DNA from: Collibacillus ludicampi
Lineage (GTDB): Bacteria > Bacillota > Bacilli > Tumebacillales > BOQE01
NCBI RefSeq assembly: GCF_023705585.1
Contig: NZ_BOQE01000001.1
Span: forward strand, 857,341 to 881,340
Length of the DNA: 24,000 nucleotides
Direction: 5' to 3'
In this document: positions 505 through 22,880 of the stretch, piece after piece
Layout: the number at the start of each line of letters is the position of its first letter
Position numbering within the stretch: the stretch's first letter is position 1
The notes under the pieces: generated by a model
The model's input: only the letters and a program-made list of their open reading frames with translations
Told to the model about the DNA's origin: nothing
The model's database searches: none
Made by a program: the position numbers and the translations under genes

Positions 505-603
505 TATGAATTCCTCCTTCATCTTTTGAACTATTACATTTAATTCGTACATGAAGACTTTCGAAACGGATAAGTATCATTGGCCACTCGTCTATTTTTG
601 ATC

Positions 604-667
604 TTGAAAATGAGTGCTTGGGTGGATGTATCGCTTTGCGCTTGGGTTCGATGAAGGTCGTTCCGCC
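604..667 (-). repeat. Half copy (type-1 end plus one inner half-stem) of the palindromic element family
   Basis: TTGAAAATGAGTGCTTGGGTGGATGTATCGCTTTGCGCTTGGGTTCGATGAAGGTCGTTCCGC matches the left arm of 11000-11143 almost base for base. No partner arm follows. Confidence 0.8.
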
Positions 668-861
668 GCTAGAGGAATGTGTGGCACTGGCTATCTTCGA
701 TACAAGTAAGGAGATATGCAGGAGAATTGGGAAAATGGGAGAAAGAAGTTTCTAAAAAGGAACCGAATTTCCTCGTTTATCTTCAGAAGATTCGTTATGC
801 TTAAAATAAAGGAACACTAACAATTCGGACGTTGGGATGAATGGCAAAGAGGTGAACCGAT

Positions 862-2475
862 ATGAAAACTTCAGCTCCTCCTGTCACATACATAAGCTTG
901 CGAGCGAAAATCAACGGTCTCGTTTTATTAAATATCGTCTTGGTTTTAACTCTCGTCATGTCGGTTGTTTCTTACTTGATGATTCATACGCAATTTGAAG
1001 AAGTGGGTAAAGACGCACTCACACTTGCCAGGATCGTCGCAGATATGCCACAGATCCGACAGGCGTTTCATGAAAAAGATCCGACTTCCATCATTCAGCC
1101 CCTGGTGGAAGGTCTGCGCAAGAAAGCGGGAGCAGAATTTATCGTTGTTGGCAATATGAGTTTGATCCGCTATAGTCATCCCAATCCCGCACTCCTTGGC
1201 AAACCCATGGTAGGAGGAGATGACGACATCGTTTTGAATGGAAAGGAGAGTATTACAGAGGCAGTGGGTACCCTCGGCCTTTCCATTCGAGGCAAATCCC
1301 CAATTTTCGATGAGAACCACCGACAAGTCGGAATCGTCTCTGTCGGTTTCTTGGTAGATAACATTTGGAAGAAAGTGTTTTCCTTATGGTTAAAAATGCT
1401 CTTCGTCGGATTCGTCGGCTTAGTGATAGGGCTCATCGGCGCACATGTGTTATCCGGTCATATCAAACGCCAAATCTTGAATTTGGAACCTTTCGAAATC
1501 GCTTTCTTGGCACAGAAACAAGCAGCCATCCTCGAGTCGATCCGTGAAGGGGTTCTGGCAGTGGACAGTACCGGAAAAATTGCGGCTTGCAATCAGGAAG
1601 CCAAGCGATTGTTAAAGATTGATCATTTTGATATTTTGGGTAAATCTGTCGATGAAACGGTTCCACACCATCGTCTCGTACAAATCCTGAAAGAAGGTCC
1701 CGATCATCTCGATCTGCCTATGATCATCGGTAATTCGCTTGTGATCGTAAACCGGGTATCTGTCATGTTGAAGGATCGTGTAATCGGAGCGGTAGCCACG
1801 TTTCGCGACAAAATGAAATTGGAGCAAATCGAACAGCGCCTCGCCGATGTAAGTAAATACGCGGAAGCCTTGCGCAGTCAACGTCATGAATTCATGAACA
1901 AACTTCATACCATTTCCGGGCTCATTCAGATGGGGGAACACGAAATGGCTAGAGAATTGATCGCCCAAGTCCATCATGAACAACAGCAACTGCTGCAATT
2001 TTTTATGACTCGTATCCGTGATTCGGCAGTCGTAGGTATCCTCATCGGAAAAATGCATCGTGCAAAAGAATTGGGCATCGAACTGACGGTCGATCCCCGC
2101 TCCCACCTGAAGGAGCCTTGTCCGTATCGGGAGATTCTTGTCACCATTTTGGGAAATGCGATCGAAAATGCGTTGGAAGCGATGACCACTTGTGAAACCA
2201 AACTCCGAGAAAAAAGCATCATCGTATACATCAACGATCAGGATGAGCAGCTCGTCATCAGCGTCAAAGATTCCGGACCCGGAATTGATCCCGCGCTTGG
2301 AGAAAAGGTTTTTGAAGATGGCGTCACAACGAAAGGAGCCGGAAGAGGTTTCGGCTTGTCTCTCTTAGCCAAGTTGGTAGCCAATGTAGGAGGGAAACTG
2401 GCGATTCTGTCCTCGCCGGAAGGAGCCACTTTGGAAGCGCGACTGCCGTTACCTGGTGTACCAGAAAACGAGTAG
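862..2475 (+). CDS. Sensor histidine kinase, CitA/DcuS family (B. subtilis CitS/DctS/MalK-like)
   Basis: 537-aa ORF with SD AGAGGTGA about 6 nt upstream. Two TM segments flank an extracytoplasmic Cache/PAS-type domain. H-box RSQRHEFMNKLHTISGL, N-box GNAIENALEA, G-boxes DSGPGI and GRGFGLSL. Confidence 0.9.
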   Translation: MKTSAPPVTYISLRAKINGLVLLNIVLVLTLVMSVVSYLMIHTQFEEVGKDALTLARIVADMPQIRQAFHEKDPTSIIQPLVEGLRKKAGAEFIVVGNMSLIRYSHPNPALLGKPMVGGDDDIVLNGKESITEAVGTLGLSIRGKSPIFDENHRQVGIVSVGFLVDNIWKKVFSLWLKMLFVGFVGLVIGLIGAHVLSGHIKRQILNLEPFEIAFLAQKQAAILESIREGVLAVDSTGKIAACNQEAKRLLKIDHFDILGKSVDETVPHHRLVQILKEGPDHLDLPMIIGNSLVIVNRVSVMLKDRVIGAVATFRDKMKLEQIEQRLADVSKYAEALRSQRHEFMNKLHTISGLIQMGEHEMARELIAQVHHEQQQLLQFFMTRIRDSAVVGILIGKMHRAKELGIELTVDPRSHLKEPCPYREILVTILGNAIENALEAMTTCETKLREKSIIVYINDQDEQLVISVKDSGPGIDPALGEKVFEDGVTTKGAGRGFGLSLLAKLVANVGGKLAILSSPEGATLEARLPLPGVPENE

Positions 2476-2549
2476 TGCCGCCAGCGGCGCCATCAGAGGA
2501 TGAAAAGCTTCTTGTGCGGGAAGAAGTATAAGGCTATCTCAAGAAACGG

Positions 2550-2790
2550 AGTGGCTTTTGGGTGGGTTGTATCGCTTTGCGGCGCAGAGGTGAGTTGAAG
2601 GTCGTTCCGCTTCCTTTAAACCGTTTCAGAGGACATATTCTTTGCGCGTAATAGCGACCTTGAAGGTCGTCTCGCTACATTTGATTGATGTTCAATGCGA
2701 GACGGCCTTCACGGAGCATGAGCGCAAAGAATATGCCTCAAAGAACCCAAGCGCAAAGCGATACACCCACCCAAGCACTAGTTTTCAAAA
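2550..2790 (+). repeat. Long-form (241 bp) copy of the palindromic element family, between kinase and regulator genes
   Basis: Type-2 end AGTGGCTTTTGGGTGGGTTGTATCGCTTTGC (2550-2580). Central hairpin 2631-2737 (GAAGGTCGTCTCGC / GCGAGACGGCCTTC). Type-1 end GAACCCAAGCGCAAAGCGATACACCCACCCAAGCACTAGTTTTCAAAA (2743-2790). Confidence 0.85.
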
Positions 2791-2828
2791 TAGCACCAAT
2801 TATTAAGTCAATAAGGAGGGTATTCACA

Positions 2829-3530
2829 TTGACCAGCCGTCCAATCCGCGTCGCAGTAGTCGATGACGACTTTATGATCGCTAACCTGCACGCCAAATTC
2901 GTACATGCACAAAAAGGATACGAAGTGATCGGAACCGCATACAACTACGAACAGACATTGTCGCTCATCACCCGTTCCAAACCCGATCTGCTGATCCTCG
3001 ATGTGTATATGCCCGACCGTTCCGGAATCGATCTATTGCATACGTTGCGTACACAAAAAATCGCCTGTGACGTGATCCTCATCACGGCGGCAAAAGAGAA
3101 CGATATCGTAGAGGAAGGGTTTCGCCTAGGTATCTTCGACTATCTCATCAAACCCTTTGATTTCGATCAGCTCAAAAAATCGCTCCACAAATACGCGCAA
3201 TTCCGCTCGCGCTTAACAAGCGTAAGCCATCTCGATCAGGAGACGCTCGACGAACTGAAAAAACTGCGCGCCATCGAGGGTACCTCCACCAAATTACCGC
3301 CATCGGGAATCGATCTGAAAACATTGGAACGGATCAGAAAATGCCTGCAACAAGCGGAAGGTCCACAGAGTGCACAGACGATCGCAGAACGGGCCGGTGT
3401 CAGCCGCTCGACGGCAAGAACCTATCTCGTCTATCTCGTTGAGGAAAACATCGCGGAAGAAGAACTCCTATACGGCTCGGTCGGCCGTCCGCAACGGTTA
3501 TACCGTTTAAAAAATCAGCCCACGGCTTGA
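2829..3530 (+). CDS. Response regulator, CitB/DcuR family (CitT/DctR/MalR-like), receiver plus C-terminal HTH
   Basis: TTG 2829 is in frame with SD AAGGAGGG (2813-2820) 8 nt upstream, giving MTSRPIRVAVVDDD. Receiver motifs are VVDDD, LLILDVYMPDRSG and ITAAKE. HTH is QSAQTIAERAGVSRSTARTYLVYL. The ORF-track start at 2685 lies inside the repeat. Confidence 0.88.
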   Translation: MTSRPIRVAVVDDDFMIANLHAKFVHAQKGYEVIGTAYNYEQTLSLITRSKPDLLILDVYMPDRSGIDLLHTLRTQKIACDVILITAAKENDIVEEGFRLGIFDYLIKPFDFDQLKKSLHKYAQFRSRLTSVSHLDQETLDELKKLRAIEGTSTKLPPSGIDLKTLERIRKCLQQAEGPQSAQTIAERAGVSRSTARTYLVYLVEENIAEEELLYGSVGRPQRLYRLKNQPTA

Positions 3531-6553: not shown

Positions 6554-6595
6554 CACATGAGTGATTTTATAAAGACGTCGAGCTTGCAATCATTG

Positions 6596-9577: not shown

Positions 9578-9706
9578 ATGTCGCGTATTTGTATCATGTC
9601 AAACGTCTTTATTTCATTGGTATATGATGGTATTCTATTAGACAGGAAGTTTTTGGTGGAATACATGGAGATTAAAAAATGGAAGGGAGGTAGAATAGTT
9701 AAATGA
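9578..9706 (+). CDS. 42-aa micro-ORF (MSRICIMSNVFISLVYDGILLDRKFLVEYMEIKKWKGGRIVK)
   Basis: SD TGAGGA 7 nt upstream of ATG 9578. The stop overlaps the next ATG in an ATGA junction (9703-9706). No homologue recognised. Confidence 0.35.
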   Translation: MSRICIMSNVFISLVYDGILLDRKFLVEYMEIKKWKGGRIVK

Positions 9707-9843
9707 AAAATAGCCTATACGTTATATATGCTATCGTTTTGGCAGCAATCTCCATATACACTCGTGAAATAGTAACTTTTATCATGCTTGGATTCATTTT
9801 GCTAACCTTAAATAACATCTTAAAGATATTAGTTAAATTCTAG
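9703..9843 (+). CDS. 46-aa two-helix hydrophobic micro-protein (MKNSLYVIYAIVLAAISIYTREIVTFIMLGFILLTLNNILKILVKF)
   Basis: ATG 9703 overlaps the upstream stop (ATGA). SD AAGGGAGG (9683-9690) lies inside the upstream ORF. Two hydrophobic stretches. A weak hairpin plus T-run lies at 9922-9946. Confidence 0.4.
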   Translation: MKNSLYVIYAIVLAAISIYTREIVTFIMLGFILLTLNNILKILVKF

Positions 9844-10002: not shown

Positions 10003-10032
10003 AATACCTAAAGCAAACGGAGGTGGATATGT

Positions 10033-11002
10033 ATGAAAACACTCGAACGAATCAGTCAATTTGTCGGTGGAACCTTTGCAGTTTGGGTACTGCTTTTTGC
10101 AACTCTTGGTTTTTTCTTACCGAACACATTTATAACATTTAAATCCTACATCTCCCCGCTCTTAGGAATTGTAATGTTTGGAATGGGTCTTACTTTATCC
10201 GGTAGTGACTTTAAAGAGGTATTTAAGCGGCCCAAAGACGTGGCTATTGGCGTTATCGGTCATTATATTATTATGCCGCTTGTGGCTTATCTCCTTGCCA
10301 TTGGGCTTCATCTTCCGCCTGAAATCGCCATCGGCGTGATTCTGGTTGGAAGTTGCCCGAGTGGTACGGCATCCAATGTTATGACCTTTCTCGCCAAGGG
10401 GGATGTGGCGCTTGCCGTCTCAATCGCGACCGTTTCCACTCTGCTCGCACCTTTTGTAACGCCGTTTTTAATCTCCGTTTTGGCAGGTAAATGGACACCT
10501 GTCGATCCACTGGCTTTATTTAAAGACATCATTGAAATCGTCATTTTACCGATCGCGTTGGGGATCATTGTCAAAGCGTTCTTTAAAAAGCAAGCCCAGG
10601 CGAGTGTCAAAATGCTTCCGCTTGTCTCTACCTTGGCCATTGTTTTGATCATTTCTGCGGTTGTAGCCGGAAGTCACGACCGAATCTTGAAAACAGGTTT
10701 TTTAAATTTTTGCCGTTGTCATACTACATAACGTTTTAGGCTTTTTGTTAGGCTATTTCTTCACGAAACTGTTTGGTATGGAGCTACCCAAAAGAAAAGC
10801 GGTCGCATTTGAAGTCGGCATGCAAAATTCCGGGCTTGGGGTCGCACTCGCAACCGCCCACTTTCATCCTTTAACAGCCGTTCCAAGCGCTATCTTTAGC
10901 GTTTGGCACAATCTATCGGGATCGATTCTCGCAACGTTTTTTGCCAAAATGGAAGAAAACCGAGAAACAGGTATAGAAACGAGAAATAACCTGACCAAAT
11001 GA
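10033..11002 (+). pseudogene. Bile acid:sodium symporter (BASS, YocS-like) with a +1 frameshift in a homopolymer tract
   Basis: ORFs 10033..10731 and 10745..11002 together cover one BASS protein (GSCPSGTASNV ... [10 protein letters not shown]). Dropping one A of AAA 10704-10706 restores ..[22 protein letters not shown].. Confidence 0.8.
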
Positions 11003-11143
11003 CAAACTAGTGCTTGGGTGGGTGTATCGCTTTGCGCTTGGGTTCGATGAAGGTCGTCCCGCCTGGATTCTTAACAGTGGTTGCGGAACGACCTTCAACT
11101 CACCTCTGCGCTGCAAAGCGATACAACCCACCCAAAAGACACT
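11000..11143 (-). repeat. Minimal (144 bp) copy of the palindromic element family
   Basis: Terminal inverted repeats AGTGCTTGGGTGGGTGTATCGCTTTGC and GCAAAGCGATACAACCCACCCAAAAGACACT. Inner helix GAAGGTCGTCCCGC (11049-11062) / GCGGAACGACCTTC (11083-11096) around a 20-nt loop. Confidence 0.85.
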
Positions 11144-11250
11144 CGGTTGCATTAGGCAGCTTAATTCTCTCTTCCCGTACAAGAAACTTTTCATCCTCTG
11201 ATTTCGCTGATTGCGGCATGGGAGACTATTTTGAAATCGACGGAATGGGT

Positions 11251-11275
11251 GCCCTGCTGATTCAAGCAGCAGGGC
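11251..11275 (-). terminator. Terminator-like hairpin downstream of the SPFH gene
   Basis: GCCCTGCTG / CAGCAGGGC 9-bp stem lying 26 nt after the stop. The T-tract on the minus strand is weak. Confidence 0.45.
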
Positions 11276-12361: not shown

Positions 12362-12775
12362 TTATCTTCCGCGGTGTTTCGCTTTTGCTTTTTGGATTTT
12401 AATCTCGCGTTTTTTTTCTTTCAGCAATTCGCGCTGCATTTTTGAAAAGGTTTTTCTTTCTTTTTTCGCACTCTCGAACTGTAATCGGATAGCTTCTTGT
12501 GCTTTGGTTGAAATCCCCTTTTGTTTCAGCGTTTTAGCCACTTCCCTTTGAAGCCGCTTTGGGTTCAGTTTCTTCTCGCGTTTTTGCACGATCTCGATGC
12601 CATCATGACGGCTTTGTGCCATAAGGGGCAGCAACCGGTACTTGACGAAGTGGAAAACTTCCGGGTCACTTGGTTCCGTACCAAAAACATACCGGTACAC
12701 GCTCAACTTGGATTTCATCACTTGTTCGATGACTCCAACCCAAAATTGACCATCATGATATACGGTCAATTTCAC
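12362..12775 (-). CDS. yjdF: YjdF-family protein (DUF2992)
   Basis: GTG 12775 has SD GAGGAGGG 6 nt upstream, giving MKLTVYHDGQFWVGVIE..., plus a Lys/Arg-rich tail (..KIQKAKAKHRGR), as I recall for B. subtilis YjdF. The ORF-track start at 12871 adds 32 leader-encoded residues. Confidence 0.75.
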   Translation of the reverse strand: MKLTVYHDGQFWVGVIEQVMKSKLSVYRYVFGTEPSDPEVFHFVKYRLLPLMAQSRHDGIEIVQKREKKLNPKRLQREVAKTLKQKGISTKAQEAIRLQFESAKKERKTFSKMQRELLKEKKREIKIQKAKAKHRGR

Positions 12776-12900
12776 GTTGATCCCTCCTCTGAAAACACTC
12801 TGTGGAATGATGGACATCCCGAGGAGGGGAAGGTTACTGACATCGTGGTAACGATGCGCCCGGACTACCAACCGGACCGTGTTTTTTCATTCCATAATTG
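12776..12900 (-). promoter_or_regulatory. Structured 5' leader with an SD-sequestering helix (candidate yjdF-type riboswitch or other cis-regulator)
   Basis: CCCTCCTC (12821-12828, minus strand) is perfectly complementary to the SD GAGGAGGG (12782-12789). Further small helices lie upstream (for example 12841-12856). Confidence 0.45.
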
Positions 12901-13143: not shown

Positions 13144-13581
13144 ATGAACTTTGAAGTAAAAACCAAAATTAAAATATTAAAGCCAGTAAGTGATGTATTC
13201 GAAGCTATCGTAGATCCTGCAAAAATGTCCAATTATTGGTTTTCATCGGGTTCTGGAAGATTGGAACAAGGTAAGACAGTTACGTTGAGATATGATGAAT
13301 ATGATGCAAAATTGGATATAAAAGTAATTGAATACGAGGTTAATAAGAAAATTGTGTACTTGTGGTCGGCAAGTGGTGAAGAAACGGTTGTTACAATTAC
13401 ACTGAAAGAGTTAGATACTACGGGTACAATTATTGAAGTTAACGAAAAAGGTTGGAAAAAAGATGATGATTCATTAATAAGCAAATTATTAGGACAAAAA
13501 GAAGGTTGGGTTTATGTATTGACTTGTTTAAAAGCGTATCTTGAATTTGGTGTTAATTTGAGAGGAGCATTGGTATTCTAG
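13144..13581 (+). CDS. SRPBCC-superfamily protein (AHSA1/START-like, YndB-type)
   Basis: 145 aa. The N-terminal pattern ..ILKPVSDVFEAIVDPAKMSNYW.. and the C-terminal helix are typical of AHSA1-domain proteins. SD GGAGTG is upstream. The gene is visibly AT-rich. Confidence 0.7.
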   Translation: MNFEVKTKIKILKPVSDVFEAIVDPAKMSNYWFSSGSGRLEQGKTVTLRYDEYDAKLDIKVIEYEVNKKIVYLWSASGEETVVTITLKELDTTGTIIEVNEKGWKKDDDSLISKLLGQKEGWVYVLTCLKAYLEFGVNLRGALVF

Positions 13582-13659
13582 TGTTTCTCTAAATGGAGTA
13601 CAAATAAAGATCACTTATGCAATAATTTTAATCGGGAATCGATAACGTAATAAACAAAT

Positions 13660-14484: not shown

Positions 14485-15900
14485 TCAATGATGGTAGACC
14501 GGTCGAACCCCAGTCACTTTGGCCGTAAAATCATCGAGAGCCGCGAGATCTTTTTTCGAGACTTCCTTGATGCTTCTTTTTCCAAGTGCGCGAACAGAGA
14601 TTTTCATCTCTTCCATACATGAATGTAAATAATTGGCCAGGTGTAGACTGGCGAGAGCAGGGTCAAGCTTTTCTTTATGTTTCCCCGTGTAGAAAACCAT
14701 TTGTGTAGGAGGCTCCCAAGGAACCGCTTTGAACACTTGTGTATGTGCCATCGCATAGAGAACGGAAGTCCCCAAGTAAACTGCATCAGCCCCGAGAGCG
14801 AGCGCTTTCAAAAAGTGATCGGGGGTGAAGAGACCCCCGCTGACAATAAGACTGATTTGCTCCCGTTTTCCGCTCTGTTCAAGAAAGTGAACCGCACGTG
14901 ATAATGCGTATATGGTTGGCAGTCCGAAATCGTCTTGAAAAATCGGCGGGCTCTCATGTGAACCCCCTTGTCCTCCGTCAATGGCTATCACGTCCACACT
15001 TGCTTCAAGCGCAATTTGCAAGTCCCTTTCCATCCAGTTACCCGCAGCAAACTTGACACCAATCGGAATACCTTCCGTAAGCGTTCGCAACTTCTCGACT
15101 AATTTCCTGAGATCCTCTGGGTCTTGCACCTCTTCATGCCGGGAATGGAGAACGGCATCTTCTCCAGGTCGTAGATTCATGATCCGACGGGCACGCCCTT
15201 GCAATAACTCCGGTTGAATCCGCTCGGCCGCCCCTGCGATCGCACCTTGTCCGAATCGGATTTCAATCATATCCGCCTGTTTAAGAATGCTAGGATCCTT
15301 TGACCATTTTCCTGTGTGATATTGGAGAATTAAGTGTTTCGCGAGATTACGTTCTTCCGGTAGAAAGCCGCCTTTTCCCACATTGCTCGCCGTTCCAACC
15401 ATCGAGGTTCCCAATGCGAAAGCCAGTCTCGCTTGTTCGCTGACACCTACCCCATAGCCCATGGCCGATACAATTAACGGTATATCCAAAACGAGCGGCT
15501 TCTTGCTAGCGGGGCCGATCATTGTCGTCGTTTCCACAGGCGTATCTTCGGGCGTAGGAAGCTTCGCAACCTGAGCGGGAGAAAAAATCAGCCCGTCAAA
15601 GTTCAGAAACTTGCGAGGACTCCCCAGAGGCCGTTGGATAACGCTTCCCGTATGAGCACGGAGAGCATTTTCCAAAACCCATTGGGGTGACATGCGTGTG
15701 AGAGCAGAAACCAGTTCCCATACATTCTCTGCATATCTGTCCGACATGAAACGCTTGACCACACCCTTGACCATCGAAGCAAGGACAACCCTTCTCACCA
15801 TATACATCATGAATAAAAAAACGCTCAGCCCCAGAAAAACGGCAAACACTTGGATGACTATCACTTTCCATGTCGTCAAGCCAGACACTCCATTACACAT
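14485..15900 (-). CDS. FMN-binding glutamate synthase family protein (GltB FMN-domain-like, YerD-type) with an N-terminal TM anchor
   Basis: 471 aa with motifs IEIRFGQGA, IAIDGGQGGS and SGGLFTPDHFLKALALGADAVYLGT. ATG 15900 has no SD. TTG 15879, preceded by GGAG, is an alternative start. Confidence 0.85.
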   Translation of the reverse strand: MCNGVSGLTTWKVIVIQVFAVFLGLSVFLFMMYMVRRVVLASMVKGVVKRFMSDRYAENVWELVSALTRMSPQWVLENALRAHTGSVIQRPLGSPRKFLNFDGLIFSPAQVAKLPTPEDTPVETTTMIGPASKKPLVLDIPLIVSAMGYGVGVSEQARLAFALGTSMVGTASNVGKGGFLPEERNLAKHLILQYHTGKWSKDPSILKQADMIEIRFGQGAIAGAAERIQPELLQGRARRIMNLRPGEDAVLHSRHEEVQDPEDLRKLVEKLRTLTEGIPIGVKFAAGNWMERDLQIALEASVDVIAIDGGQGGSHESPPIFQDDFGLPTIYALSRAVHFLEQSGKREQISLIVSGGLFTPDHFLKALALGADAVYLGTSVLYAMAHTQVFKAVPWEPPTQMVFYTGKHKEKLDPALASLHLANYLHSCMEEMKISVRALGKRSIKEVSKKDLAALDDFTAKVTGVRPVYHH

Positions 15901-15947
15901 TTTTTATAAAATGTGTCCAGAACATGGATTGTATTCAAATGGAGATC

Positions 15948-16892
15948 TCACGCCCGATCAAAATCTTTTTTTAACCATTCGATCAGTTCCCGTTCCCGCT
16001 CTTCGTTCATTTTCTGCGAAAATTCGGGTGTCCATCGATAGAAACCCTCTCCATTCTTCTGGCCATATTTCCCCTCGTCGACCAAACGGCGCATGGTAGG
16101 CAAAGACTCTTGCTGGGTACCTAAATCGGGGAATAAGTAATTGGAAATCGAATCAAATACATCCAAGCCTCCCATGTCAGCCGACATAAACACTCCCGTT
16201 ACCGGGAGACGTCTCCCGATGCTGTAACGGACTGCCGCATCAATATCCTCTACAGTTGCAATCCCTTGTTCGAGGATATTCTGTGCCTCCCTAAACAGTG
16301 CAAACTGCAAACGATTGCCGATAGAACCCAGAATTTCTTTTTTCAAAACCACCGGTTTTTTGTTCATCTTGTGCAGTAACGCCAACGTGCGATCTACAGT
16401 AGCATCGGAAGTATATGTACCGCGAACGACTTCAACAAGTGGGATCAGATGGGCGGGATTCCAAAAATGAGTAACGATCGTTCTCTCCTTATGGACAGTA
16501 TGTAATGCGATATCAGTAGGACTGAGTCCCGATGTATTGCTCGCCAGTATTACATTCGTAGGACATTGCTCATCTAATGATCGGAACCACTCTTGTTTCA
16601 GAGCGAGATCTTCCGGTATCGCCTCAATCAAAAAGGTGGCATTTTGCACACATTCATCCAACTCGCAAGTAAATGTCACTCGCTCTTTAATCGCCTCAGA
16701 CTCAGGTGAACGGATGGCATCATAACGAAGCAGCACCTGAAGTTTCTCCGCGATTCCTTTTCGTCCCCGTTCGATATCTTCTTGATCTTGCCCCCAGACG
16801 TTCACAGACATGCCAGCCAGCGCTGCAGACAAAGCGATCGAATGTCCCATCGTTCCTGTACCCAGTACCACAAGTTTCTCTTGTTCAGTCAT
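15948..16892 (-). CDS. 3-hydroxyacyl-CoA dehydrogenase family protein (lambda-crystallin / L-carnitine-dehydrogenase-like subgroup)
   Basis: 314 aa with SD GAGGGG 7 nt upstream. Rossmann motif VVLGTGTMGHSIA and family motif HFWNPAHLIPLVEVV. Lies 47 nt upstream of the FMN protein gene, so the two are probably one operon. Confidence 0.8.
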   Translation of the reverse strand: MTEQEKLVVLGTGTMGHSIALSAALAGMSVNVWGQDQEDIERGRKGIAEKLQVLLRYDAIRSPESEAIKERVTFTCELDECVQNATFLIEAIPEDLALKQEWFRSLDEQCPTNVILASNTSGLSPTDIALHTVHKERTIVTHFWNPAHLIPLVEVVRGTYTSDATVDRTLALLHKMNKKPVVLKKEILGSIGNRLQFALFREAQNILEQGIATVEDIDAAVRYSIGRRLPVTGVFMSADMGGLDVFDSISNYLFPDLGTQQESLPTMRRLVDEGKYGQKNGEGFYRWTPEFSQKMNEERERELIEWLKKDFDRA

Positions 16893-22554: not shown

Positions 22555-22793
22555 TTGAAAGTTTAGTGCTTGGGTGGATGTATCGCTTTGCGCTTGGGTT
22601 CGATTATCGGGCATATGCTTTACGTTCATGCTCCGTGGAGGTCGTCTCGCTTGGAATATATTTAATTGTTGCGAGACGACCTCCAAAGTCGCTGTTTCAC
22701 GCCAAGCATATGCCCCTCACCAGCCAAAAAGGAAGCGAGACGACCTCCAAAGTCGCTTTCTTACGCAAAGCATTACGCCCACCCAAAGACACT
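22555..22793 (-). repeat. Long-form (239 bp) copy of the palindromic element family, between hisZ and hisG
   Basis: Type-1 end TTGAAAGTTTAGTGCTTGGGTGGATGTATCGCTTTGCGCTTGGGTTC. Central hairpin 22609-22715 (GGAGGTCGTCTCGC / GCGAGACGACCTCC). The 45-nt right arm is duplicated (22671-22715 and 22735-22780). Type-2 end is CGCCCACCCAAAGACACT. Confidence 0.85.
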
Positions 22794-22837
22794 ATTCACT
22801 CTTCTGATGGCCCCTCTAAAAGCATGGGTGGCAACAC

Positions 22838-22858
22838 TGAAAGTTAGTGCTTGAGCAG
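22838..22858 (-). repeat. Solo type-1 terminus fragment of the same element family
   Basis: TGAAAGTTAGTGCTTGAGCAG closely repeats TGAAAGTTTAGTGCTTGGGTGG at 22557-22578. Confidence 0.55.
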
Positions 22859-22880
22859 TTACGTTGGAAAAATTCCCACA

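Follow-up and report, generated by a model that had tools for sequence, protein, structure and literature searches.

Two genes of a two-component system lie on the forward strand of the 24-kb window (the whole stretch of DNA analyzed here), a sensor histidine kinase gene followed by a response regulator gene (Table 1). Pfam domains in the kinase comprise sCache_3_2 (2e-24), PAS, SPOB_a (2e-12), and HATPase_c (2e-17), and those in the regulator are Response_reg (1.5e-26) and a DpiA-like HTH_64 (9e-10). This combination of a Cache/PAS sensor with SpoOB-like dimerization and HATPase domains, and of a receiver with a DpiA-like HTH, is that of CitA/DcuS-CitB/DcuR systems. The spacer between the kinase TAG (2473-2475) and the regulator TTG (2829) measures 353 nt, and the TTG follows 8 nt after an SD (AAGGAGGG, 2813-2820), in agreement with the gene identities and spacing of the original prediction.

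Comparisons drew mainly on two relatives: a metagenome contig with ~91% nucleotide identity to the window and the same gene order (L001), and a 145.6-kb metagenome contig from a conspecific strain (L010/L011). In both, the regulator orthologue is called at 233 aa from the same TTG. Hence, a 48-codon N-terminal extension of the regulator ORF in the window is spurious, as had been proposed, although the codon at 2685, said to be an ATG, is a TTG, and an ATG follows at 2688.

Almost the entire spacer is taken up by one copy (copy A) of a repeat family. A repeat copy inside the operon, between the kinase stop and the regulator start, had been predicted and was found: the window holds four copies of the family, and the L001 spacer holds none. 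The limits first assigned to it (2550-2790, 241 nt) were wrong, given that family homology runs from 2476 to ~2793 and the left module (2476-2549) is present in every full copy. We regard this left region as part of the family because it forms the terminus of the L001 copy (where it adjoins shared flank sequence), accompanies all full copies, and occurs alone elsewhere in L001. Outside the element, only the last 35 nt of the spacer remain, of which ~16 SD-proximal nt are recognizably common to L001.

Table 1. Coordinates of the two-component genes, the modules of the intercistronic element (copy A), and the other family copies in the window.
Feature	Position	Strand	Details
CitA/DcuS-type sensor histidine kinase gene	862-2475	+	537 aa; TAG stop 2473-2475
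Copy A, whole element	2476-2793	+	318 nt; begins directly after the kinase stop codon
Left module TGCCGC..CAGAGGATGAAAAG	2476-2507	+	No inverted partner at right end; in copies A, B, C, and L001-E
Optional 42-nt sub-module	2508-2549	+	Counterpart in copy B; missing from C and L001-E (MAFFT)
Left outer arm, AGTGGCTTTTGGGTGGGTTGTATCGCTTTGCG then GAAGGTCGTTCCGC box	2550-2610	+	Inverted repeat of 2738-2781; matches all other copies
Central hairpin	2631-2737	+	One nested pair of ~45-nt internal units plus loop; fold -58.5 kcal/mol
Right outer arm ..CCCAAGCGCAAAGCGATACACCCACCCAAGCACT, ending CCCACCCAAGCACT	2738-2781	+	Matches end pattern
Tail AGTTTTCAAAATAG	2782-2793	+	Element-associated TTCAAAA(N)TAG motif
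Native regulator leader with SD AAGGAGGG	2794-2828	+	2813 onward common to element-free L001; identical in L011
CitB/DpiA-type response regulator gene	2829-3530	+	233 aa; TTG start
Copy D, internally deleted mini-copy upstream of kinase	601-685	-	342-nt long form at this site in L001
Copy B, short form without internal units	11002-11220	-	Lies between the prohibitin-like and SBF-like genes, which converge
Copy C, long form in the hisZ-hisG spacer	22555-22850	-	Fills this spacer

Alignment of the window copies and one from a related contig shows a modular element, in which a left module precedes a pair of outer inverted arms, each arm can contain 0-3 nested units of ~45 nt, and a TTTTCAAAATAG tail closes the right end. 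Its ends read TGCCGC..GATGAAAAG on the left and ..CCCACCCAAGCACT on the right, and the internal units, which are related to the outer arm, follow the pattern GGGCATATGCTTTGCG...GAAGGTCGTCTCGC. The inverted arms proper span ~32 nt (2550-2581/2750-2781) and are extended by TGAAAA/TTTTCA, the TTTTCA of the tail being, as read from the sequence, inverted relative to the TGAAAA of the left module; a further 20-75 nt at the left end (2476-2549) are unpaired. Complementarity to other copies is 87% between 2525-2610 and 11083-11168 and 96%-97% between the right outer arm and 11004-11050 and 22564-22601. Six occurrences of the end motif GCAAAGCGATACA-N(1,2)-CCACCCAA were counted in the window (0 expected), and the TTCAAAA(N)TAG motif was found only beside elements (3 matches vs 0.22 expected).

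A census of the window and related contigs (~75 kb in all, from three organisms) recovered copies of 85-432 nt. Counting the outer arm, copy B has one unit in each arm, copies A and C have two in each, and copy L001-E has two in the left and three in the right. Strains differ at four of five sites, either in having a copy or in its form. The hisZ-hisG spacer is 344 nt long in the window, where it holds copy C, and 5 nt long in a relative with 81% HisG identity (L006). The dehydrogenase-ABC gap contains a short-form copy and an extra tRNA_edit gene in L010 and a solo left module (13577-13609) in L001, and holds no copy in the window. We infer mobility of the element solely from such presence/absence differences.

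Several observations were made around individual copies. Fragments resembling a right end plus tail were detected on the minus strand at 11226-11251 and 22851-22875 (shuffle P ≤0.003), preceding copies B and C by 7-12 nt upstream of the left module; they may be what is left of tandem copies, or else a long direct repeat flanking the element. In a relative whose HisG is 87% identical, two independent Logan contigs (L008 1-110 and L009 1-108) end ~110 nt upstream of hisG, within a duplicated motif, GAGCYCGWGTGCAAAACGRTA, that resembles a diverged element right arm, which suggests an older, diverged sub-family at the hisG site together with assembly breaks caused by the repeat. A frameshift interrupts the window version of the SBF-like gene (bile acid:sodium symporter family, 10028-10996, plus strand), the stop codon of which is 3 nt away from copy B's right arm: frame 1 ends at ~10731, and the rest of the C-terminal portion is read in a different frame. 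The gene is intact in L010 (322-323 aa), and the window version represents either a pseudogene or a sequencing error.

We compared orthologous operons at the kinase-regulator site, as the original prediction had proposed. The L001 proteins are 98% (regulator) and 93% (kinase) identical to those of the window, and the two genes are separated by 78 nt. This spacer showed no significant similarity to any element copy in a shuffle test (best P ~0.13), and a suspicion, raised by eye, that it might be a decayed copy was rejected on the same result. In a relative with 79% regulator identity (L002), the kinase and regulator genes overlap, and the gap between the homologous genes is 17 nt in Fodinisporobacter and 27 nt in Aneurinibacillus. 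Because the L001 spacer is element-free and the more distant homologues overlap or lie no more than 27 nt apart, the parsimonious reading is that the element was gained in the window lineage after its split from the ~91%-identical L001 relative. The insertion left the kinase stop, the regulator SD, and the regulator start codon intact. As the L001 spacer is unrecognizable in the window beyond ~16 SD-proximal nt, the event would have involved insertion plus loss or divergence of ~55 nt. No consistent short flanking direct repeat was seen at the five sites, and the filled and empty alleles here differ by more than a simple insertion.

That the element was instead ancestral at this site and deleted in L001 is highly improbable. 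In its favor, the 78-nt spacer of L001 does not align with the non-element remainder of the window spacer, and an 8-mer, GCACTAGT, stands at the 3' end of the L001 kinase gene (9733-9740). This 8-mer is identical to the stretch in copies A and B where the final four bases of the right arm run into the tail, but the match is marginal (shuffle P ~0.03, uncorrected for multiple testing). The L001 spacer itself bears no significant trace of a copy, and with three more distant homologues that overlap or are closely spaced, gain is the more parsimonious course. The 8-mer may be either a coincidence or a hint of target preference. Insertion beside right-end-like targets was considered as a general rule and dropped, as the marginal 8-mer in L001 was its one instance and the window's own flank offered nothing comparable.

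The regulator gene has remained conserved since the gain. Between the window and L001, it differs by 30 synonymous and 4 non-synonymous codons, and the polarizable changes split 1:1 by lineage. Judged from these codon differences, purifying selection acts on the regulator in the lineage that carries the insertion; hence, the gene remains functional and must be expressed even now.

In the conspecific strain (L011), the kinase protein is identical to that in the window (7 differences in 1,614 nt), the regulator is 99.6% identical (4 of 702 nt differ), and the element occupies the same site in a spacer of 467 nt. Alignment of the two alleles shows no difference in the first 152 nt and none in the last 93 nt, short gene ends included. 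Between these flanks, in block 2618-2742, which takes in the central hairpin, we counted 26 mismatches in 125 aligned nucleotides and 114 gap columns, the latter corresponding to one extra unit per arm. Such divergence has a Poisson probability of ~7e-33 against a 0.5% background. The simplest explanation would be that the element interior was swapped by exchange with another copy since insertion. Such turnover of the interior between nearly identical strains speaks against fine tuning of its role.

If transcribed, the element would be strongly folded. The 107-nt central hairpin that had been described, with its quoted stems, is present and folds at -58.5 kcal/mol. It forms part of a larger predicted hairpin of ~230 nt (2549-2781, -118 kcal/mol), and the whole spacer folds at -144.8 kcal/mol vs -100.5 ± 5.3 kcal/mol for shuffled sequences (z = -8.3; 0 of 100 shuffles as stable). 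Fold z-scores across six copies lie between -6 and -12. Occlusion of the regulator SD by the element was considered and rejected: the SD pairs with its own coding region in element-bearing and element-free alleles, and therefore the element is not the cause of this pairing.

These folds bear on whether the element could be a selected cis-regulatory RNA (an RNase III site, attenuator, or stability element) that sets kinase:regulator stoichiometry here and the expression of hisG and other genes elsewhere. We consider this unlikely. The element is kept in two strains, and it is co-oriented with transcription in all three co-directional gene gaps (kinase-regulator, hisZ-hisG, and, in L010, tRNA_edit-ABC), but three of three is not significant (P = 0.125). 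The sense-strand fold is more stable than the antisense fold in six of six copies, although the arms contain 23 G-T vs 18 A-C mismatches, which is no clear strand bias, and strand-specific selection on the RNA was rejected on this count. Likewise, four of the 38 pairs in the consensus structure of the central hairpin (three copies) have compensatory changes, but such symmetry can equally come from arm-to-arm conversion, with no need for selection on the RNA. Co-orientation, sense-fold stability, and compensatory pairs provide weak hints of selection on the RNA. Against a regulatory role, moreover, the same operon in L001 does without the element and has an equally conserved regulator; unit number and 26 of 125 interior positions differ between strains whose kinase and regulator genes differ by ~0.5%; and the same family sits in unrelated contexts.

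A stable stem followed by AGUUUUCAAAAU may also recall a terminator or insulator, in which case the two genes would be uncoupled and a separate promoter, within the element or beyond it, would drive the regulator. Resemblance to terminators has been noted for SPRITE-type repeats (PMC3049150). This arrangement is nonetheless very unlikely, as the stem is followed by only four consecutive U, and a scan of the spacer (2476-2828) found no intrinsic-terminator consensus and no sigma-70-like promoter. In addition, termination at sister copy C in hisZ-hisG would cut off the remaining his operon, and the regulator is still under purifying selection.

The element could not be assigned to a known RNA or repeat family. 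Within 2400-2900, the best Rfam 15 matches were at chance level (E = 0.16 and 8.7), and the sole match in the window to reach its gathering score was a yjdF riboswitch outside the element. This yjdF (azaaromatic) aptamer, at 12794-12898 on the minus strand, scores 90.7 bits (gathering score, 45) and lies upstream of ORF 12362-12871 on that strand. A small ORF starting from an ATG in the left module was discarded as a candidate: its frames differ between copies A and B, and therefore the element contains no conserved ORF. Plasmid, phage, and viral collections contained no relative of the element, and when one-genome-per-species and metagenome collections were scanned for exact patterns, the only matches were chance ones (in a gammaproteobacterium, Flavilitoribacter, and a patatin-like coding region). 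HisG in the window is nearest to those of Effusibacillus species (75%-79% identity), and within the collections searched, the family is apparently private to an Effusibacillus-like lineage. The element resembles a MITE in being small, non-coding, multi-copy (4 in 24 kb), and polymorphic for insertion, and its inverted repeats are subterminal, given the unpaired left extension; no transposase was called in ~33 kb of L010/L011.

Enterobacterial REP/BIME sequences are mosaics of palindromic units in alternating orientation, located between operon genes and at their 3' ends. They stabilize upstream mRNA segments or attenuate downstream expression, as in malE-malF (PMC3049150, PMC5927463). The element resembles them as a mosaic of palindromic units plus accessory motifs, but its units are ~45 nt long rather than palindromes of 20-40 nt, the whole element forms one long palindrome, and the host belongs to another phylum.

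The BOX repeat of Streptococcus pneumoniae, boxA-boxB(n)-boxC, is a composite non-coding intergenic repeat with fixed ends, variable internal modules, and strong folding, which has been found co-transcribed at either end (5' or 3') of operons as well as between regulatory elements and varies in composition between strains (PMC3049150). Fixed end modules, a variable number of internal units, a strong fold, and strain-varying composition are all shared by the element. Unlike BOX, in which a tandem boxB array lies between two different ends, its internal units are nested inverted pairs in a foldback layout, and its left module can occur alone; no sequence relationship was detected between the two.

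Correia repeats of Neisseria (CREE/NEMIS) form hairpins in mRNA that are bound or cleaved by RNase III, and their presence varies between strains; they are 70-157 bp long, with 26-bp terminal repeats and a TA (or CA) target duplication, and some create promoters (PMC2649163). The element is likewise an inverted-repeat element located between genes, variable between strains, that would form a hairpin if present in mRNA. It differs in being modular and 2-4 times longer, and its ends and flanks lack the 26-bp terminal repeats, TA duplication, and promoter features of CREE. Eukaryotic Foldback (FB) transposons have long inverted arms of tandem sub-repeats in variable number, and are much larger and sometimes coding. 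The likeness to FB is one of architecture only, in that the arms consist of repeated sub-units whose counts differ between copies. Membership of any named repeat family is thus not supported by these sequence comparisons. By analogy, the element is built like the composite BOX, BIME, and Correia repeats and apparently represents an undescribed family of a well-known kind of element.

Taken together, our preferred interpretation (probability roughly 0.7) is that 2476-2793 is a lineage-specific, non-coding, modular palindromic repeat that was inserted after the split from L001 and persists as a passenger, selfish or close to neutral; that it serves as a dedicated control device is unlikely. As such a passenger, the element would be transcribed with the operon; co-transcription is probably retained, given that the spacer contains neither promoter nor terminator signals, and the purifying selection on the regulator likewise fits read-through. 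The intercistronic RNA would then carry a long, nearly perfect hairpin, and the tight spacing of kinase and regulator would be lost. Intercistronic hairpins can protect mRNA (PMC5927463), and the hairpin may be cut by RNase III, or it may block 3'-exonucleases and thereby favor the upstream kinase segment. By analogy with such cases, changed relative stability or translation of the two cistrons is likely. A modest shift in the kinase:regulator ratio would be the most probable outcome, of which the direction and size are not predictable from sequence.

A more speculative and unlikely reading is that the element is a prokaryotic foldback-type element that remodels itself via hairpin or single-stranded DNA intermediates, with its sense orientation in operons perhaps selected for differential RNA decay. 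Units would then be gained and lost on both arms together, interiors would be swapped between copies, and the left module would move alone. If true, this would constitute a mechanism of mobilization or conversion undescribed for bacterial MITE, REP, or BOX repeats.

The case shows that strongly folding foreign sequence of 318-432 nt can be tolerated between the genes of a tightly linked kinase and regulator. The window, L001, and L011 also provide a natural allele series with no element, one, or two inner unit pairs (spacers of 78, 353, and 467 nt), which is suited to tests of hairpin effects. In annotation, the family gives rise to spurious N-terminal extensions, and it is a probable cause of broken metagenome assemblies in this lineage. 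Given that BOX, BIME, and Correia precedents make this biology expected, its general significance is modest.

Further differences between the window and its relatives were noted outside the element. At window position 6554-6575, L010 has ~800 nt more (15858-16659). This extra sequence contains a short-form copy, a second solo fragment of a right end, and a gene for a 171-aa protein with a YbaK/tRNA_edit domain; in L001, a solo left module is all that is present. The site appears to be a rearrangement hot spot beside a conserved terminator hairpin. At window position 9660, L010 has 326 nt extra (12481-12807) that encode a 70-aa predicted membrane protein and adjoin a 52-nt imperfect inverted repeat (window 9479-9530/9606-9657). 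Upstream of the kinase, a 67-nt direct repeat (271-337/439-505, 79% identity) lies within two small minus-strand ORFs. The gene calls for region 271-505 consist of a single 315-aa gene in the conspecific contig and of 98 and 30 aa in L001, and the region may represent a repeat-containing or decaying gene.
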